Below, piece after piece: positions 11,801 through 17,448 of a stretch of 23,040 nt of DNA. Under the pieces are notes generated by a model. That model saw only the letters and a list, made by a program, of their open reading frames with translations. It did no database searches and was not told where the DNA came from. Each line of letters begins with the position of its first letter. The stretch's first letter is position 1. A program made the position numbers and the translations under genes. Origin of the DNA: a virus (lineage: Duplodnaviria > Heunggongvirae > Uroviricota > Caudoviricetes); IMG/VR virus record IMGVR_UViG_2671181056_000005, positions 1-23,040 of that record; one strand, given 5' to 3'.

Positions 11801-12597
11801 TGCTTACGTACTTTCAGGAATGAATCAACGTTAATGTTTTCAATTGGTACGGATAAGCCATATTTTTCATTTGTTAGGTAGTGGAAAATCTGATCCACGC
11901 CGTTAGTGCTAGCCTCAATAGCATTGGTTTCAAGGTTACGGATTTTAAGGCCGCAAACGTCTACTGCTACCTGGCTATTTGGCTGGAGAATATCAACACC
12001 AGCAGCAAGAGATTTGTCATCACGACGTAACACAATACACATGGTCGCAATGCCGTTACCCTTGAAAGCGTCGGTCCAGTCTGAGCCTAAATGACGTTTT
12101 GCCAGCGACAAAGCGGTGTTAGGATTCTTGCCCGTGCGGAACTCGACTTCTAATACTTTACGATATTCTTCTTTAATGTTGCCCTTATCGAGAATACCAT
12201 CACGGATCGTCATGTTCTTACCAACAAGAACATTTTTATTATCAATAAAGAGTGCTTTGTAATGGTCGATTTCACCCTCGGCTACAGAGAAGATTTGCAC
12301 TAGCTTATTGTTTTCTTGCTTAGAAACTGCTTTGTAAACACAGTTTGTGCCAGTGCGGGTAGTACCGAAAACGACTGGTATCACCGCTTTCGGATCGTTT
12401 GATGTTCCTAGTGTCACCGCATTATCTGGGCTTTGTACTTTAGGTGTTTTTGGTGCGCCTACAGTGGAAGCGATCAAAGTCATTGCACCAGCAGCCATAC
12501 CGATAGCGACTGCGGTCATAACCGAAAATGTTGCGGCTGCCGCCATCCCCGCCGAAGCACCAGCAATAACCGCGCCTACCAATATTTCAAATCCCAT
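8821..12597 (-). CDS. Tail tip / host specificity protein, lambda gpJ-like, 1258 aa
   Basis: C-terminal ~150 aa resemble recalled lambda J C-terminus (TVTVRVEDDHKFDRQIVIP, VIDMPAGKGAVTLTF, MVTKKATTGITVS); FN3-like central region; N-terminal Ala/Gly-rich hydrophobic segment; start coupled TAATG to upstream gene. Confidence 0.85.
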   Translation of the reverse strand: MGFEILVGAVIAGASAGMAAAATFSVMTAVAIGMAAGAMTLIASTVGAPKTPKVQSPDNAVTLGTSNDPKAVIPVVFGTTRTGTNCVYKAVSKQENNKLVQIFSVAEGEIDHYKALFIDNKNVLVGKNMTIRDGILDKGNIKEEYRKVLEVEFRTGKNPNTALSLAKRHLGSDWTDAFKGNGIATMCIVLRRDDKSLAAGVDILQPNSQVAVDVCGLKIRNLETNAIEASTNGVDQIFHYLTNEKYGLSVPIENINVDSFLKVRKQVRQMDLHSNGACDPNASFKENLTSLMQTFGGVMFESFGRITLKLDAPDIVKHTFNEDNIMMGKVSLKTGGTNGYFNTINAMYQEPSIDYSEQMLRYPADAENDATVRADGRIIAKDVEYRFVKSKDQIDKLASIERNKSRITQVISFMTTDAFTAEVWDVISVTYDELKLNNSLWRITAIDRSIDSGIAGMMTITATEYNSQVYTDLNYAANPDNRPSGLPDSMTVQKPTNFRIKATGETIYGKNVTLTWDAPEDFNRYGFQIDYRVSGSPNWIKLGQTSQQIFSVNALAKDRSYDYRVCAFGIIARSDWVELINQNPTVTYELPTPVIRIKNQGSTPGTFEGNDLIIEWENQQGLDVEINGETNKFSDLFEAYIIKVTNKAGKSIQYRTRDPESWTYTLDMNQFNGLSRQLTVEVSAKGYNNSESAPARLVAINPQHKPMKGFSARGGFNSVFVSWADDVEHDYAGSIIQYATDNTFSDARAVSTNSVSHTSFDLADGDYYIRGAHYDIFGMDDAVWSEPYFMQMKSTISWDDQDKEALEDLIGLQDRLDETIADAIAQAGANADAKIDAMHKQITTETGQTVQASANTLKSLIATSEQASSTKIDQVKAELKGDITKEVSASATTLKQAIATSEAASASKIDQVRVEMDGKIAGVNQEADVKIDALKGTINSKYNLAVNADGRVAGIHMSATNDPAQPTRIIFNADKIAVAPQNGSEVCPFGIEGNKVYLDNAMIRNAAIGTAQINDAAITTAKIGNAAINSAKIQDGAITNAKIVNGAIDNAKIGNYIQSSNWNGSTGWHINKNGSATFMNATVKGNITADSGTLNNVTINSSCVIKGMLEATQVKGDFVKVIGRKFPHRDVNVDNGYAGYPQGTVTVRVEDDHKFDRQIVIPAVSFGGLRAREGSNNNTFYDTCRLIVRKNGSELYNRAYGGNTGLYSGVIDMPAGKGAVTLTFEVQSSAINNWTPSTWISDLTVMVTKKATTGITVS
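9436..9590 (-). repeat. Tandem 30-nt (10-aa) repeats inside the gpJ-like gene
   Basis: Period-30 nucleotide repeat encoding AQINDAAITT / AKIGNAAINS / AKIQDGAITN / AKIVNGAIDN. Confidence 0.6.
9832..10041 (-). repeat. Tandem ~105-nt (35-aa) duplication inside the gpJ-like gene
   Basis: Protein segments ASANTLKSLIATSEQASSTKIDQVKAELKGDITKE and ASATTLKQAIATSEAASASKIDQVRVEMDGKIAG. Confidence 0.5.
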
Positions 12598-13016
12598 TAT
12601 TCACCCCCGAATCTATAAACTTGTTCATAGTCAATGTCTGAAACAGGAATGGTCATCCAGATACCATCTTCTTCAACGAGGCCATAACCGGAATAATGAG
12701 GAACTACGGAATAATAATTACGGTTTCCTAATTTGTGGGCTGTGACCAGTAAGTCGCCGTCCTGTAAATCATCAGTGACTAATTTGAAATGTTTCTTAAT
12801 TGGTTGAAGGATATTTGAATACCCGCTTAATTCTTTGCAGATTTTCAAGCCTTCTTCTTTAGTTGAATATTTTTTATAAAGAGAATTATATAGGTCAGTA
12901 CCAGCGAGAATATCGATGATCTTACATGCAATGAGATTGCAATCATTCTCGCCTTGAACGAACTCCTGACCTATTAAAGAATTGATGTAATCGGTGATAA
13001 GCCTAGTTTTTAGCAT
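12597..13016 (-). CDS. Tail tip assembly protein, gpK-like (NlpC/P60-type Cys/His motifs), 140 aa
   Basis: ATG at 13016 has GGAGG 8 nt upstream; the track start at 13172 would overlap the upstream gene by 110 nt and is not used; motifs ENDCNLIA and VVPHYSGYG; stop overlaps the gpJ-like start. Confidence 0.5.
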   Translation of the reverse strand: MLKTRLITDYINSLIGQEFVQGENDCNLIACKIIDILAGTDLYNSLYKKYSTKEEGLKICKELSGYSNILQPIKKHFKLVTDDLQDGDLLVTAHKLGNRNYYSVVPHYSGYGLVEEDGIWMTIPVSDIDYEQVYRFGGE

Positions 13017-13062
13017 GTTGAATACCTCCATGCTGTTATTTACTAGGCTTAGGGAGAAGGGA

Positions 13063-13716
13063 TTATTTCTTCGATGAATGCCACTTGCTTTCGCTATTCC
13101 ACTTCCCGGCACGGGAGAAGAATAGATCGTTCTCGTTTCCAACATAGGATCGGTGGATACCATCGGAAGCATGACTACGAGCGTTTTTATCTAGAACTTC
13201 CCAGATACTATTAAGCTGAAATTCTGATTCGTTTTTACACTCTTCATCTTCATGTTCGATGTTAATACCGATGGAATCGACTACCCCACGGAAAACAGGG
13301 TAAGTAGTTTCAACCTTGCCCGTGTTGGGGTTAAGGAAAACCATCTCGATTTTCACATCAGATTTATCGAATTGCTTGTTACGAATCAGGGTAATGTATT
13401 CTTCGCGAACGTTAGAAACAGTTACGTTGATCCCGTTGTTGTTGATCTCCTTCTCTTCGGTATTCGATGAGATTTGAAGAAAGTCACCCGTTGCAAGATA
13501 CGTAAAACCGTTATAGTCCAAATCGAAATACCCATCAGTAAGCCGTAGAACGTCCCCTGACGCTGTTATCACTTCGATAATATGAAACATCGATCCAGTG
13601 GAGAAAAGTTGCGGTAGCGTCAATCTAGACACATTCTGACCTGTCTGGTCGTTGTATACCTCGATGAAGTCCAGATTAGTGCATAGTTTGCTGAATGATT
13701 CCTGAATAGTTGCCAT
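13063..13716 (-). CDS. Minor tail protein, gpL-like, 217 aa
   Basis: Position after the tape measure gene; N-terminus MATIQESFSKLCTNL and NVTVSNV resemble recalled lambda gpL; GGAG RBS; start coupled TAATG to upstream gene. Confidence 0.55.
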   Translation of the reverse strand: MATIQESFSKLCTNLDFIEVYNDQTGQNVSRLTLPQLFSTGSMFHIIEVITASGDVLRLTDGYFDLDYNGFTYLATGDFLQISSNTEEKEINNNGINVTVSNVREEYITLIRNKQFDKSDVKIEMVFLNPNTGKVETTYPVFRGVVDSIGINIEHEDEECKNESEFQLNSIWEVLDKNARSHASDGIHRSYVGNENDLFFSRAGKWNSESKWHSSKK

Positions 13717-14276
13717 TATACATTCTCCACTAATTCAAATTTCATCTTGCCGATCTGGGCGATCTTCCAATCGATGTTTTCAGTTTTGAGAACAAATTCA
13801 CCTTCTACGTTCTGATACTTGATCACCTCACCCGCCAGGACGTTCTGACGCAAGTTAGGGAAGAGTTTCATTTCGCCACCTGATTTCACGTCTTCGGTGA
13901 TCGTGTAGATTTTCTTGTGGTTCTCAAACTGGATGATAGTTCCTGCTTTCAGTGTTCCGGTGAAGTTGGAGATTCTCACCTTACGCCCACCGCGAGCAGT
14001 ACCAGCAGCAGCCGTTACCATCTGGCGTACATCACCTGTATATTTTGAAAAGTAAGACAGTGGCACACTAAAAGGACGACCAAAAAGGTGACGTGCTACA
14101 AATTCTTTTACTTCGTTAATATCCTGAGCCATGTAATTCGCGGTAAATTCTGCTTCGTAAAAATGGATGCCAGTAAAGCGACGCTGGAACTTACCGGAGA
14201 TAGATTGCGCCTTGAAGAAAGGCTGTTTTGATTTAAGAGTAAAATCTGTGATTTTAATATTCTTGGATTTGAACAT
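13716..14276 (-). CDS. Minor tail protein in the gpM / distal tail position, 187 aa
   Basis: First gene after the tape measure gene; start ATG 14276 or 14291, the latter lying inside the hairpin stem. Confidence 0.5.
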   Translation of the reverse strand: MFKSKNIKITDFTLKSKQPFFKAQSISGKFQRRFTGIHFYEAEFTANYMAQDINEVKEFVARHLFGRPFSVPLSYFSKYTGDVRQMVTAAAGTARGGRKVRISNFTGTLKAGTIIQFENHKKIYTITEDVKSGGEMKLFPNLRQNVLAGEVIKYQNVEGEFVLKTENIDWKIAQIGKMKFELVENV

Positions 14277-14282
14277 AGAAAA

Positions 14283-14324
14283 AGCCCCCATAGTTTTATG
14301 ATTATTTATGACTATGGGGCTTTT
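14283..14324 (-). terminator. Stem-loop with U-tract immediately after the tape measure gene
   Basis: Plus-strand AGCCCCCATAG (14283-14293) / CTATGGGGCT (14312-14321), 18-nt loop; on minus-strand RNA followed by UUUUUCU; contains the GGGGG RBS and one candidate start of the next gene. Confidence 0.45.
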
Positions 14325-14326
14325 AA

Positions 14327-16756
14327 TTACATCTTACGGCGCTGAGCGTCTTCTACCGCCTGAGCAACTAATTTAGCGTGACGTTTGATAGCATCCATGA
14401 CCATCTTGTCTGAGCTATTAACGTTGCCGTTAATGTTCAAAGGCGCATTAACTTCAATCGGCTGAGAGTTACCACCGCCTGATTTTTGAGCAGCAAGGAA
14501 GTCTTTCAAATCACCGTTAGTACGCTGATCAACTACTCGTTCCCCCTTATCAAGCAACCATGTACCCTCACGAGGGATGTTATCGATACCATCATGAGCC
14601 ATACCGCTAACATTAGTAGACTTGATGTTTGCGATGTTCCCCATGTTCTGAGAAACAGCCAATGCAGCAGCAGCGATTTTTTGACCTGTGGTTACGTTGG
14701 TCGGATCGTTCCATGCATCGGTAGCTGCCGTCCACATGTTCACCGTCGCTTGTCCAATGGAGAATGCCTTATGAGCATTGAAAGCCATCTGCATAGCTTT
14801 TGTGTTTTCCTGCCCGAAGAGAGTCATTGCAGCAGCAAAACCGCCGTACATATCATCGGCTATTGACTGACGAGCATCAGCGTATTTCTTCTCAATTGCA
14901 GCCATCCGTTTTTGATGGTTTTCATTGAGTTTTTCTAATGCTTCCATCCGTTTAGCCGGATCGGTGATCCCATCAATCTTGAGTTTATCGGTCTTATAAT
15001 CTTGTTCAGCATCCGATTTCTCTTTATCGATTGCATTAAATTTAGCAAACGGATTATTTGAGTCTTGATAATCATAACCACTAGTTAATTGATTGGTTTT
15101 ATAACCATCCATTCCCTGTAAAGAATTTTCAATCTGAGAATAGTTTTGCTCGGTATCGTTCACACGACGCATATATTCTTCGTAGGAGATAGCTTTACCA
15201 TCAAGTAACCGTTTATGGCTTTCTAGCTCGTTGTCCCTGATTTGTTGCAATTGTGTTAAAGCATTCAGAGCATCAATCGGATCAGCACCCAACATCATTT
15301 TATAAACGTTTTCAGTATTCTGATCGATTAGCGCCTGGCGTTTCGCGGCTGCGTCTTCCTGAGAGATTAAGCCCAGAGCTAACGCGTCGTTCACATCTTT
15401 TAAGCTGTTTTGCAACTGGCTATTTTGAGAAGTGATAGACGCTGCAACTTGCCCTTGCAATTTAACATCAAGTGCATTCAGTCGCTTGATTGCATCCTCG
15501 CGTGCTTTCTGTGCTTTTTCTGCGGCTTCCTTAGCCTTTTTAGCTGCCTCTTCCGCTTTCTTTTTGGCTTCTTCCTCGGCTTTCTTCTCGTTGCCAGATT
15601 TACCCAATGATTCTGGTCTTACTGGTTTATTTGGTAGAGTTAAATCAGTGTTAGGATCTGCCTTGCGTGTCAGATGTTCACCAGCATCTACGACAATCAG
15701 AGCACCATTTTTCTTATAAGACCCACCAAAACGTTTCTTAAATCCTTCTACATCAAAGCCAGCAGTACGAGGATCGACACCAGCACCACGGATCGCGGCC
15801 TTTTCCCAATCTGCTAGATTATTCCAACGCTTTTCTTTATTGTACTTGTCAATAATCTTTTGAGCGTCTTTATGGTTGGCGTTAAGAATACCGCCAGTTG
15901 CGGTCTTGCCTTCTTTATTCAGTCGATCTAATGCCCTGAATAGAGAACTCTTTTCCCAATCAATATTAAACCAGTCAAATAACCAGTTTAAACTATCAAC
16001 CAGCGGACCAGAAATGGTCATACCGACACCTTTCAGGTTATTTTCCAGCTTATTGATATTTTGAGAAAATTTATCATATTTTTTAGCGTTTTCTTCGGTG
16101 ACGTTAACAGATTGATTCTGAATAGCGATCATCGCCTCTTGAGCAGTATTATATTTCTCAAGCTGGCTGGTCATATGGCTTGAATCACTGGCTAAAGATT
16201 CCATCATGAACTTGATTTCAGCCATTGATTTTCCGGCTTTCTTCATGTCATAGAACACTTGGATCGCCGCTTTCATACCACCTTGCGGATCAGTCATGAA
16301 GTGAGCATAGTTTTCTAACTTAAGGCCAACCGATTCTAAGTCATCGGCAATACCGCCACCGTTAGCCCATGCATCACCCATTTTATCTAAGGTGTCTTTG
16401 TTGATATCACCAAATTTTTCAACTGTTAGGCCAGTGCCAGAAAATTCCTTTTCTAGTCTTTGAAGGGATTCAATCGAGAGTCCGGTCGCCTTAGATACTT
16501 CTGAATACTGTTTAACGTATTCCGCACCAGCTTTAGCGGCTGCAAAAACTGCGGTCGTAACTAAGCCGATACCACCAGCAGCCAAACCAGCAGAGCCAGC
16601 AATCCCACGAAGAGATCCAGTCAAACCAGACAAGCCACCACCAAAATCAATACCACTTGCCTTTTCAGACAAACTATCGAGAAGGTCGGCGGCTTCACTG
16701 GTACTTCTCCTTAGACCTTTATTATCCCCTTCTATTGTTACTATATGTTTTGTCAT
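14327..16756 (-). CDS. Tail tape measure protein, 809 aa
   Basis: Length, position after the chaperone pair, Gly-rich N-terminus, long coiled-coil with KKAEEEAKKKAEEAAKKAKEAAEKAQKA low-complexity repeat. Confidence 0.85.
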   Translation of the reverse strand: MTKHIVTIEGDNKGLRRSTSEAADLLDSLSEKASGIDFGGGLSGLTGSLRGIAGSAGLAAGGIGLVTTAVFAAAKAGAEYVKQYSEVSKATGLSIESLQRLEKEFSGTGLTVEKFGDINKDTLDKMGDAWANGGGIADDLESVGLKLENYAHFMTDPQGGMKAAIQVFYDMKKAGKSMAEIKFMMESLASDSSHMTSQLEKYNTAQEAMIAIQNQSVNVTEENAKKYDKFSQNINKLENNLKGVGMTISGPLVDSLNWLFDWFNIDWEKSSLFRALDRLNKEGKTATGGILNANHKDAQKIIDKYNKEKRWNNLADWEKAAIRGAGVDPRTAGFDVEGFKKRFGGSYKKNGALIVVDAGEHLTRKADPNTDLTLPNKPVRPESLGKSGNEKKAEEEAKKKAEEAAKKAKEAAEKAQKAREDAIKRLNALDVKLQGQVAASITSQNSQLQNSLKDVNDALALGLISQEDAAAKRQALIDQNTENVYKMMLGADPIDALNALTQLQQIRDNELESHKRLLDGKAISYEEYMRRVNDTEQNYSQIENSLQGMDGYKTNQLTSGYDYQDSNNPFAKFNAIDKEKSDAEQDYKTDKLKIDGITDPAKRMEALEKLNENHQKRMAAIEKKYADARQSIADDMYGGFAAAMTLFGQENTKAMQMAFNAHKAFSIGQATVNMWTAATDAWNDPTNVTTGQKIAAAALAVSQNMGNIANIKSTNVSGMAHDGIDNIPREGTWLLDKGERVVDQRTNGDLKDFLAAQKSGGGNSQPIEVNAPLNINGNVNSSDKMVMDAIKRHAKLVAQAVEDAQRRKM

Positions 16757-16759
16757 AAA

Positions 16760-17110
16760 TTACCCCGTTTGTGCGCTTCTGAGTTTCTCAAGCAAAGATG
16801 GATCAAACATGTTCAATATTGCAGCGTTGCGTTCTTCTTCTTTCTTACGTGCAATTTCTTCCATTTCTTCTTTAGTTTTAAAGAGTTTTTCTTCTCTAAT
16901 TAACTGGAATTGGCTAGGCTTGAGTTTCTTTGCAGTTTCGCGTGTCATTCCTTGCGACGTCATATACATGGAATATTGCAACATCGCATTCTGCATATCA
17001 TGAAACGCGGGGCTTTGTGGTTCTAAGTAGGTGTCGAAAATGTATAATTTCCAAAACAGAGTGATTGGCATATTATCCATTTCATCTTTACTAAGCCCCG
17101 ATCGCATCAT
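16760..17110 (-). CDS. Tail assembly chaperone, T-frame part of a G/GT-type pair, 116 aa
   Basis: Immediately upstream of the tape measure gene; no Shine-Dalgarno before its ATG; reading frame opens 15 nt before the upstream stop in the -1 frame. Confidence 0.55.
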   Translation of the reverse strand: MMRSGLSKDEMDNMPITLFWKLYIFDTYLEPQSPAFHDMQNAMLQYSMYMTSQGMTRETAKKLKPSQFQLIREEKLFKTKEEMEEIARKKEEERNAAILNMFDPSLLEKLRSAQTG

Positions 17111-17139
17111 TTGCCGGAAATAGAAATTCAGAAGCGGGT

Positions 17140-17448
17140 TTACTTTACCTCGTTTTCAATTACTGCCGGTTCTTGCATCAATGATGCTTGAGCAACCAAA
17201 CCGATTAATTCACTGCGGACGTTAGTATACAGTGCCTTAACTTGTTCCATAGATTCAAATACTGGCTTACCGTCTTCATCTTCAATACAACGAAGAATAG
17301 AACGTTCATCACGGTCATCTTTATCGGTATTGAAAACATGTTCGTTAAATTCTTTTACTGACATAGGGCGAGCATAGAAAGTGAATCCACCGATGATCAG
17401 AGATTCGCGTTTCGGAGAAAGAGCTTTCAGCATTTCATTAATATTCAT
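17140..17448 (-). CDS. Tail assembly chaperone, gpG-like, 102 aa
   Basis: Position; GAGGA RBS 7 nt upstream; acidic C-terminus ending ...ENEVK with codons GUA AAG UAA. Confidence 0.55.
   Translation of the reverse strand: MNINEMLKALSPKRESLIIGGFTFYARPMSVKEFNEHVFNTDKDDRDERSILRCIEDEDGKPVFESMEQVKALYTNVRSELIGLVAQASLMQEPAVIENEVK

Follow-up and report, generated by a model that had tools for sequence, protein, structure and literature searches.

The 23,040-nt stretch of viral DNA analyzed here (IMG/VR record IMGVR_UViG_2671181056_000005, positions 1 to 23,040; hereafter referred to as the window) carries a gpG-like tail assembly chaperone open reading frame (ORF), which we call G, followed by a second ORF, which we call T. 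Comparison of their junction with those of related loci makes it quite probable that this is the -1 recoding site of a G/GT tail assembly chaperone pair in a lambda-like prophage of Escherichia coli and that the site belongs to the NNA_AAG type. This is a known kind of phage recoding, and the window presents an unannotated instance of it having a reduced slip signal.

All of the features of the G/T junction lie on the minus strand of the window. G occupies 17140..17448 (stop included), encodes 102 aa, has the Shine-Dalgarno (SD) sequence AGAGGA, and ends in ...GAA AAC GAG GTA AAG TAA. T is read in the -1 frame, which is closed upstream by a UGA at 17156..17158; this UGA limits the shift window to 17155..17143. 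An earlier note on this DNA, made from the sequence alone, had described a gpG-like ORF ending in GUA AAG UAA and a downstream -1 ORF lacking an SD, and both descriptions are accurate. It had also placed the opening of the T frame 15 nt before the G stop; the frame does open only shortly before this codon, at 17155, which is 13 nt ahead of the first base of the stop, a trivial difference. No ATG, GTG, or TTG occurs in the T frame before the ATG at 17110..17108, which belongs to a tandem ATG ATG (17105..17110) starting 30 nt past the G stop. This tandem is the only candidate independent start for T and it too is without an SD, as the anti-SD duplex of the T ATG has a dG of only -1.7 kcal/mol vs. 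-6 to -12 kcal/mol for most genes in the window, in which two further ORFs also have no SD. The proposed shift site is G_GUA_AAG (17143..17149), comprising the tetramer A_AAG (17146..17143) with the AAG codon at 17145..17143, and it is followed directly by the 0-frame stop UAA (17140..17142), a possible "shifty stop" enhancer. As the earlier note recognized, this is not a canonical X_XXY_YYZ heptamer: the A site re-pairs (AAG to AAA), but the P site does not. It is, however, an NNA_AAG hexanucleotide (GUA_AAG, 17148..17143), meaning an in-frame A_AAG after an NNA codon. In-frame A_AAG constitutes 0.39% of the codons in the window genes and would be expected in ~2% of 5-codon overlaps; judged by these frequencies, its occurrence in the overlap exceeds chance expectation.

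According to the proposed mechanism, most ribosomes translating G would stop at the UAA (17142..17140) and release the 102-aa chaperone, while a small fraction would slip by -1 with tRNA-Lys on AAG (17145..17143) and re-pair on AAA (17146..17144). The next codon would be GUA (17143..17141) and the T frame would then be read to 16760. The predicted product is a 229-aa G-T fusion running ...ENEVK-VNPLLNFYFRQ-MMRSGL..., in which the T domain begins directly at the slip and is encoded by 16760..17143 (minus strand; 127 aa plus stop), compared with 116 aa for the annotated-style version of T counted from the ATG at 17110. These lengths agree with the ~229-aa fusion and the 11 residues between the slip and the first Met that had been claimed for it. 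The signal would be a Z_ZZN tetramer or hexanucleotide, with the tRNA-Val on GUA re-pairing only partly with GGU. If the fusion functions as it does in lambda, its G part would be the binding partner of the tape measure protein and its T part would bring in the tail tube protein.

The tRNA-Lys of Enterobacterales, which is their sole Lys tRNA, has the anticodon mnm5s2UUU, and no phage-encoded tRNA was found in the window. GUA and GCA are both read by cmo5U34 tRNAs, an extended-wobble class that is reportedly favorable for shifting. A single tRNA-Lys reads both AAA and AAG in E. coli (PMC5009743). The smallest motif described for -1 shifting is Z_ZZN, and among tetramers in E. coli, A_AAG shifts most readily (PMC5009743; PMC4066793). 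NNA_AAG sites are used naturally in IS1222 (G_CGA_AAG) and are present in Bacillus subtilis cdd (A_CGA_AAG), with an efficiency that depends upon the wobble behavior of whichever tRNA decodes the 5' codon (PMC5009743; PMC4066793).

Conservation of the junction and of the T frame

A total of 63 loci were scored, consisting of the window and 62 relatives with 24-100% identity. The relatives were obtained from IMG/VR, metagenomes, one metagenome-assembled genome (MAG), Salmonella, Providencia, and Edwardsiella genomes, and the E. coli phage DCP80, and one of them (L061) was checked by hand. T is located in the -1 frame relative to G in 63/63 loci, and the G/T overlap of every one of the 63 contains exactly one in-frame A_AAG, which is either at the same Lys or no more than 3 codons away. 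The base ahead of AAG is always A (NNA_AAG in 63/63), even though the codon to which it belongs varies among AAA, UUA, GAA, GCA, and GUA. Both the -1 frame and A_AAG were therefore kept in all 62 relatives when their G/T junctions were compared with that of the window, and every comparative test that we ran supports the slip of tRNA-Lys from AAG to AAA that the earlier note had proposed to fuse G to T.

The 63 junctions fall into 12 types. G_GUA_AAG followed by UAA is found in 45 loci, the window included, while single loci have the same heptamer followed by UAG (L015) or UGA (L045). UAA also follows A_GUA_AAG in the Providencia locus, G_GCA_AAG in L061, G_GAA_AAG in five loci (56% identity), and A_AAA_AAG in two (~25% identity). 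A stop codon (UAA, UAG, or UGA) thus stands directly after AAG in 56/63 loci and in 7/12 junction types. In the other five types, a sense codon takes the place of the stop and A_AAG is kept: G_GUA_AAG is followed by AAA in three loci with 63% identity (L035, L058, and L064; Edwardsiella and Salmonella among them) and by CCA in a Salmonella locus (L055), A_GUA_AAG by GAA in L051 (43% identity), A_AAA_AAG by UCC in L063, and U_UUA_AAG by CCG in DCP80 (34% identity). The most distant relatives possess canonical heptamers, either A_AAA_AAG (L036, L052, and L063) or U_UUA_AAG (DCP80). Read from this sequence series, the clade of the window has a reduced version of the site, its A-site half alone being slippery.

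The heptamer does not vary across 38 unique close sequences, whereas its flanking codons do. Among eight representative G genes, a single codon is kept in just 7 of the 43 columns with a conserved residue of degenerate coding. The adjacent Val101 (GTA) and Lys102 (AAG) are both among these seven, and the other four conserved Val columns all vary in codon. This constraint falls within a C-terminal tail of G that is variable in sequence and whose residues 93-100 have a pLDDT (predicted local distance difference test score) of <50 and are modeled as disordered, which points to selection upon an RNA signal, rather than upon the protein.

In the T frame, the 33 nt separating AAG from the first ATG encode VNPLLNFYFRQ (17111..17143). 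Across the 38 close sequences, 9 of the 14 variable columns in this stretch are synonymous third positions of the T frame (binomial test with 24% of random changes synonymous; P=0.0018). Distant relatives exchange Arg codons (CGG/CGC/AGG) and Leu codons (CUG/UUG/UUA/CUA), all while keeping V-N-P-L-L-x-F-Y-[FY]-R-Q. DCP80 and L051, both very distant from the window, have x-[DN]-W-x-K-x-F-R-Y-R in common starting from the first residue past the slip, and they retain the F-x-[FY]-R motif. In L015, a 3-nt insertion in this stretch preserves the frame, and in L045, the change from UAA to UGA is at the same time a change from GUA to GUG (Val) in T, such that both frames are respected. The two Met residues of the window, on the other hand, are replaced by Ala-Leu in L061 and by Leu-Ile-Leu in DCP80. 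By this pattern of substitution, the segment ahead of the ATG is coding in the T frame and is under purifying selection. Since this coding segment has no start codon in the window, the T frame would be enterable only from G, by a -1 shift occurring between 17155 and 17143. The earlier note had rightly singled out the 11 residues, but the "linker" role assigned to them does not hold, as the T domain begins with these residues, which are conserved and predicted to be helical.

Stimulators, the adjacent stop, and competing explanations

We infer the occurrence of slippage, its efficiency, and the influence of the stop from these sequences, and several observations weigh against a shift at A_AAG. 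The P-site codon has no canonical re-pairing (GUA to GGU, or to AGU in the A_GUA_AAG relatives), and a stimulator was not detected: the downstream 58 and 103 nt fold less stably than shuffled sequences (z = +1.7 and +1.1, respectively), the fold of a nine-sequence alignment reached only -1.36 kcal/mol with no covarying pair, an Rfam scan of the region returned only noise, and there is no SD-like element 10-14 nt upstream. Tetramers lacking a stimulator yielded 0.15% frameshifting vs. a background of 0.11% (Sharma et al. 2014; PMC4066793), and A_AAG reached 5.6% only in combination with the IS3 pseudoknot (PMC4066793). In addition, the conservation counts are not fully independent, given a small family of related lineages, and the tandem ATG is near enough to the G stop to be within the reach of termination-reinitiation. 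Because stimulator-less tetramers function near background and no stimulator was found at this junction, a low efficiency is to be expected, and the shift is probably infrequent, perhaps very infrequent. The G:GT ratio of lambda is ~30:1 (PMC5009743), and a low efficiency would fit the small quantity of GT required by lambda.

Further candidate elements were considered and rejected. GAGG (GAG-G) directly 5' of the site has the wrong spacing for a stimulator and is UCGG, GCGG, or GAAG in relatives. The same GAGG was discarded as an SD for a T-frame start, as no start codon is located 5-10 nt downstream and the element is unconserved. A downstream hairpin or pseudoknot was rejected based upon the shuffle z-scores and the alignment fold.

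The stop adjacent to AAG is the only candidate enhancer that we can point to, and it may act as one, being frequent and recurring in distant lineages. It is probably not required, since it is missing in five junction types. A stronger version of this idea, in which the 0-frame stop is itself the stimulator and tRNA-Lys slips by -1 in the P site while the ribosome awaits a release factor on UAA, appears to us somewhat doubtful. If it were true, the junction would be a natural -1 "shifty stop" having neither a heptamer nor an RNA structure, and the GT:G ratio would track the termination efficiency of the host (release factor RF1/RF2 supply and UAA-A context). The earlier note had favored P-site slippage at the stop specifically; the slip itself is supported, but this timing is not separable in silico from A-site or tandem slippage. 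The same protein would result whether the slip happened in the A site, during translocation, or in the P site at UAA.

The principal competitor of a -1 shift at A_AAG is that T is made exclusively as a separate 116-aa protein, by reinitiation or de novo initiation at the ATG of 17110 or 17107, with no fusion produced. A Met at the ATG position is common in relatives, both gene callers and PGAP annotate T as its own ORF, no frameshift stimulator was found, and, according to Vladimirov et al. 2022 as cited in PMC10885494, some phage groups make tail assembly chaperone proteins without frameshifting. We nonetheless consider exclusive production of a separate T improbable. Its ATG is without an SD (dG -1.7) and is not conserved as a start, given the Ala-Leu of L061, the Leu-Ile-Leu of DCP80, and the at least eight different starts that have been called. 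Moreover, it would leave unexplained the purifying selection acting in the T frame on the 33 nt ahead of the ATG, as well as the universal -1 relation, the invariant A_AAG, and the canonical heptamers of the distant relatives. Independent initiation or reinitiation at the ATG of 17110 may nevertheless operate as a route additional to the shift.

The remaining explanations seem to us far less probable still. In one, the shift would take place at A_AAC, with tRNA-Asn slipping onto AAA (GAA AAC, 17157..17152; A_AAC, 17155..17152). This tetramer is in frame and falls where the T frame is open, and AAC performs well as an A-site shift codon in eukaryotic systems (PMC5009743). However, A_AAC is not an effective tetramer in E. 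coli (PMC4066793); L038 and L041 have AGC in place of AAC, and L023 and the Salmonella relatives have GAA or TCG codons there; and the residues that would be added (RGK) are unconserved, so that we give the A_AAC site very little credence. We give even less to a frame change in the RNA or DNA itself (through transcriptional slippage or a sequencing/assembly indel) or to a decaying pseudogene pair with an unexpressed T. An insertion sequence (IS) does lie beside a truncated fiber gene, which means the prophage in the window may be defective, and runs of 6-7 A in L036, L052, and L063 could support polymerase slippage. The window itself has just three consecutive A, which is too few for RNA polymerase to slip; an identical junction is found in 45 independently assembled loci; and both ORFs are under strong purifying selection. 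A -1 slip at A_AAG thus accounts best for the frame relation, the invariant motif, and the coding segment ahead of the ATG.

Protein identities and prophage context

By fold and context, G is identified as a tail assembly chaperone, an assignment that includes model-based evidence. Its matches to Pfam Phage_TAC_13 (PF16459) were sub-threshold in 6/7 family members, and it matched phrog_344 ("tail assembly chaperone") with a value of 1.4e-6. The AlphaFold (AF2) model of G has a pLDDT of 79, and the top and only meaningful match to it in a Foldseek search of the PDB was 2OB9, the HK97 tail assembly chaperone, over the full length (probability 1.0, E 2e-3, TM 0.53). Throughout E. coli, Salmonella, Proteus, and Edwardsiella, the RefSeq/PGAP name of the gpG-like protein is "cytochrome" (e.g., L053 6073..6381 of NZ_AP027634; P0064-P0090), a label that is a propagated misannotation.

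T scored 21.1 bits against Pfam Phage_tail_T (PF06223, the lambda gpT family), which is below the cut-off of 25.9; 3/7 family members match this profile weakly, with the best remote T member reaching 25.3 bits. An hhalign comparison of the family profile with lambda G-T was not significant (E=0.1). The T family is small, having 21 clusters among 1.84 billion representative proteins. Its AF2 model is poor (pLDDT 57) and unsuited to a fold search; residues 1-30 are the most confident part, and helix 3-15 spans both the "linker" and the two Met. In RefSeq, T is a "hypothetical protein" beginning from an internal ATG (window position 17071), with no ribosomal slippage annotated, and across databases it has been called with at least eight different Met starts and lengths of 73-123 aa, a scatter that is expected for an ORF without a real start of its own. 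A word-indexed protein search using the artificial 229-aa fusion returned no match, while the separate T and G queries did match, and the protein searches revealed no G-T fusion, whether annotated or naturally in frame. One E. coli G variant in nr (P0084, 96 aa) has the sequence ...ENEVK-CKPASEFLFSANDAIGA. Such a sequence implies that 2 nt were inserted immediately 3' of AAG, which removes the stop and would place T in the +1 frame; either this prophage copy is broken or the variant reflects a sequencing error.

The order of genes in the tail module is tail tube, gp38-like adhesin, G, T, tape measure, distal tail proteins, and a 1258-aa ORF, such that the G and T pair is located between the tube and tape measure genes with one extra gene, the gp38-like adhesin gene, interposed between the tube gene and G. 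The tape measure protein gene (14327..16756, minus strand; 809 aa; phrog_13674, 4e-64) is directly downstream of T, the end of which (16760) lies four bases ahead of its start. Upstream of G, the major tail/tail tube protein gene (18172..18645, minus strand; 157 aa) matched phrog_158 (1.2e-20) and, weakly, Phage_TTP_11/12; PGAP names its counterpart in L053 a "phage tail tube protein." The gp38-like adhesin gene is located at 17491..17997 (minus strand; 168 aa; Pfam Gp38_N, 3.6e-15). The 1258-aa ORF matches tail fiber PHROGs, and its counterpart in E. coli PSJ-22 is a "phage tail tip protein" according to PGAP.

A gp37-like distal subunit of a T-even-type long tail fiber is encoded at 18702..21914 (minus strand; 1070 aa; phrog_1699, 1.7e-120). 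This gp37-like fiber gene and the gp38-like adhesin gene flank the tube gene within a lambda-like siphovirus tail module, and the same fiber/tube/adhesin layout recurs in relatives. The 5' end of the fiber gene abuts a transposase gene (21913..22893, plus strand; 326 aa; phrog_3598, 4e-174). The fiber gene encodes 1179 aa in E. coli PSJ-22 (L053 1286..4825) vs. 1070 aa in the window, and the window copy looks to be truncated by the IS, which is why this prophage copy may be defective. Two tail ORFs, 12597..13172 and 13716..14291 (both minus strand), are without an SD as listed (dG +0.4 and +1.6, respectively). The former overlaps 13063..13716 by 110 nt, and the PGAP starts in PSJ-22 differ (DUF6950 protein, 420 nt); the program-listed starts of both ORFs are probably wrong. 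At the other end of the window are genes for a large serine recombinase (1297..2991, plus strand; 564 aa; TTG start in the ORF list), a DnaB-like helicase (4965..6464, plus strand), and an endonuclease-like protein (3065..4249, minus strand), which together are consistent with an integrated prophage.

The G/T segment is present at 90-99% identity on the chromosomes of 51/5426 complete E. coli genomes (~1%) and on about 30 IMG/VR prophage contigs of ~35 kb, and the prophage family also occurs in Salmonella, Providencia, Proteus, and Edwardsiella. A scan of genome contigs gave one match, a mis-binned MAG contig. Megablast searches of phage and plasmid collections with the junction returned no match, and the segment has no close relative among deposited phages or plasmids; tblastn alone retrieved the Escherichia phage DCP80 (L001, PQ671644.1), the only deposited phage with a related G/T/tape measure module. 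DCP80 has a 141-kb genome that is filed under Straboviridae/Tevenvirinae/Gaprivervirus, and all of the genes in its module region are labeled "hypothetical." A siphovirus-type G/T/tape measure module is unexpected under this taxonomic placement.

Relation to known recoding systems

The accepted picture of G/GT expression is unchanged by the window site, and its practical value is mainly one of annotation: G is misnamed, the T starts are inconsistent, and the fusion has never been annotated. Heptamer-based frameshift finders would overlook this site. The family also provides a natural homologous series of AAA_AAG, UUA_AAG, GAA_AAG, GCA_AAG, and GUA_AAG sites, each with or without an adjacent stop, which could serve to measure the contributions of the P-site codon and the 3' stop to -1 slippage in E. 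coli.

Among known systems, the junction is like those of lambda G/G-T and the HK97 gp10 type (Levin, Hendrix & Casjens 1993; Xu, Hendrix & Duda 2004) in having two ORFs between the tube and tape measure genes. As in lambda, the downstream ORF is in the -1 frame and without start signals of its own, the proposed slip is that of tRNA-Lys on ..A_AAG toward the 3' end of G, and a strong RNA stimulator is not known. It differs from lambda in several respects. The lambda site is G_GGA_AAG, whereas the P-site GUA of the window is not slippery; the 0-frame stop of the window comes immediately after the shift codon, whereas G of lambda continues for 5 more codons; and a gp38-like adhesin gene separates the tube gene from G. 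The sites of IS3 (A_AAG), IS1222, and cdd are similar in that only tRNA-Lys re-pairs cognately (AAG to AAA) and an extended-wobble tRNA decodes a 5' codon ending in A. Those sites work in conjunction with a downstream pseudoknot or an upstream SD, however, neither of which was found or is conserved in the window family. The "shifty stop" (Weiss et al. 1987; prfB type) likewise combines a slow-decoding A-site stop with a slippery P-site codon, but the classic natural examples shift by +1 (prfB), whereas the shift in the window would be -1 and its stop probably inessential, as five junction types that keep A_AAG have a sense codon instead. Lastly, the A_AAA_AAG heptamer of the dnaX type occurs at the homologous place in L036, L052, and L063; compared with dnaX, the first AAA is a GUA in the window, which has neither an SD 10 nt upstream nor a downstream hairpin.

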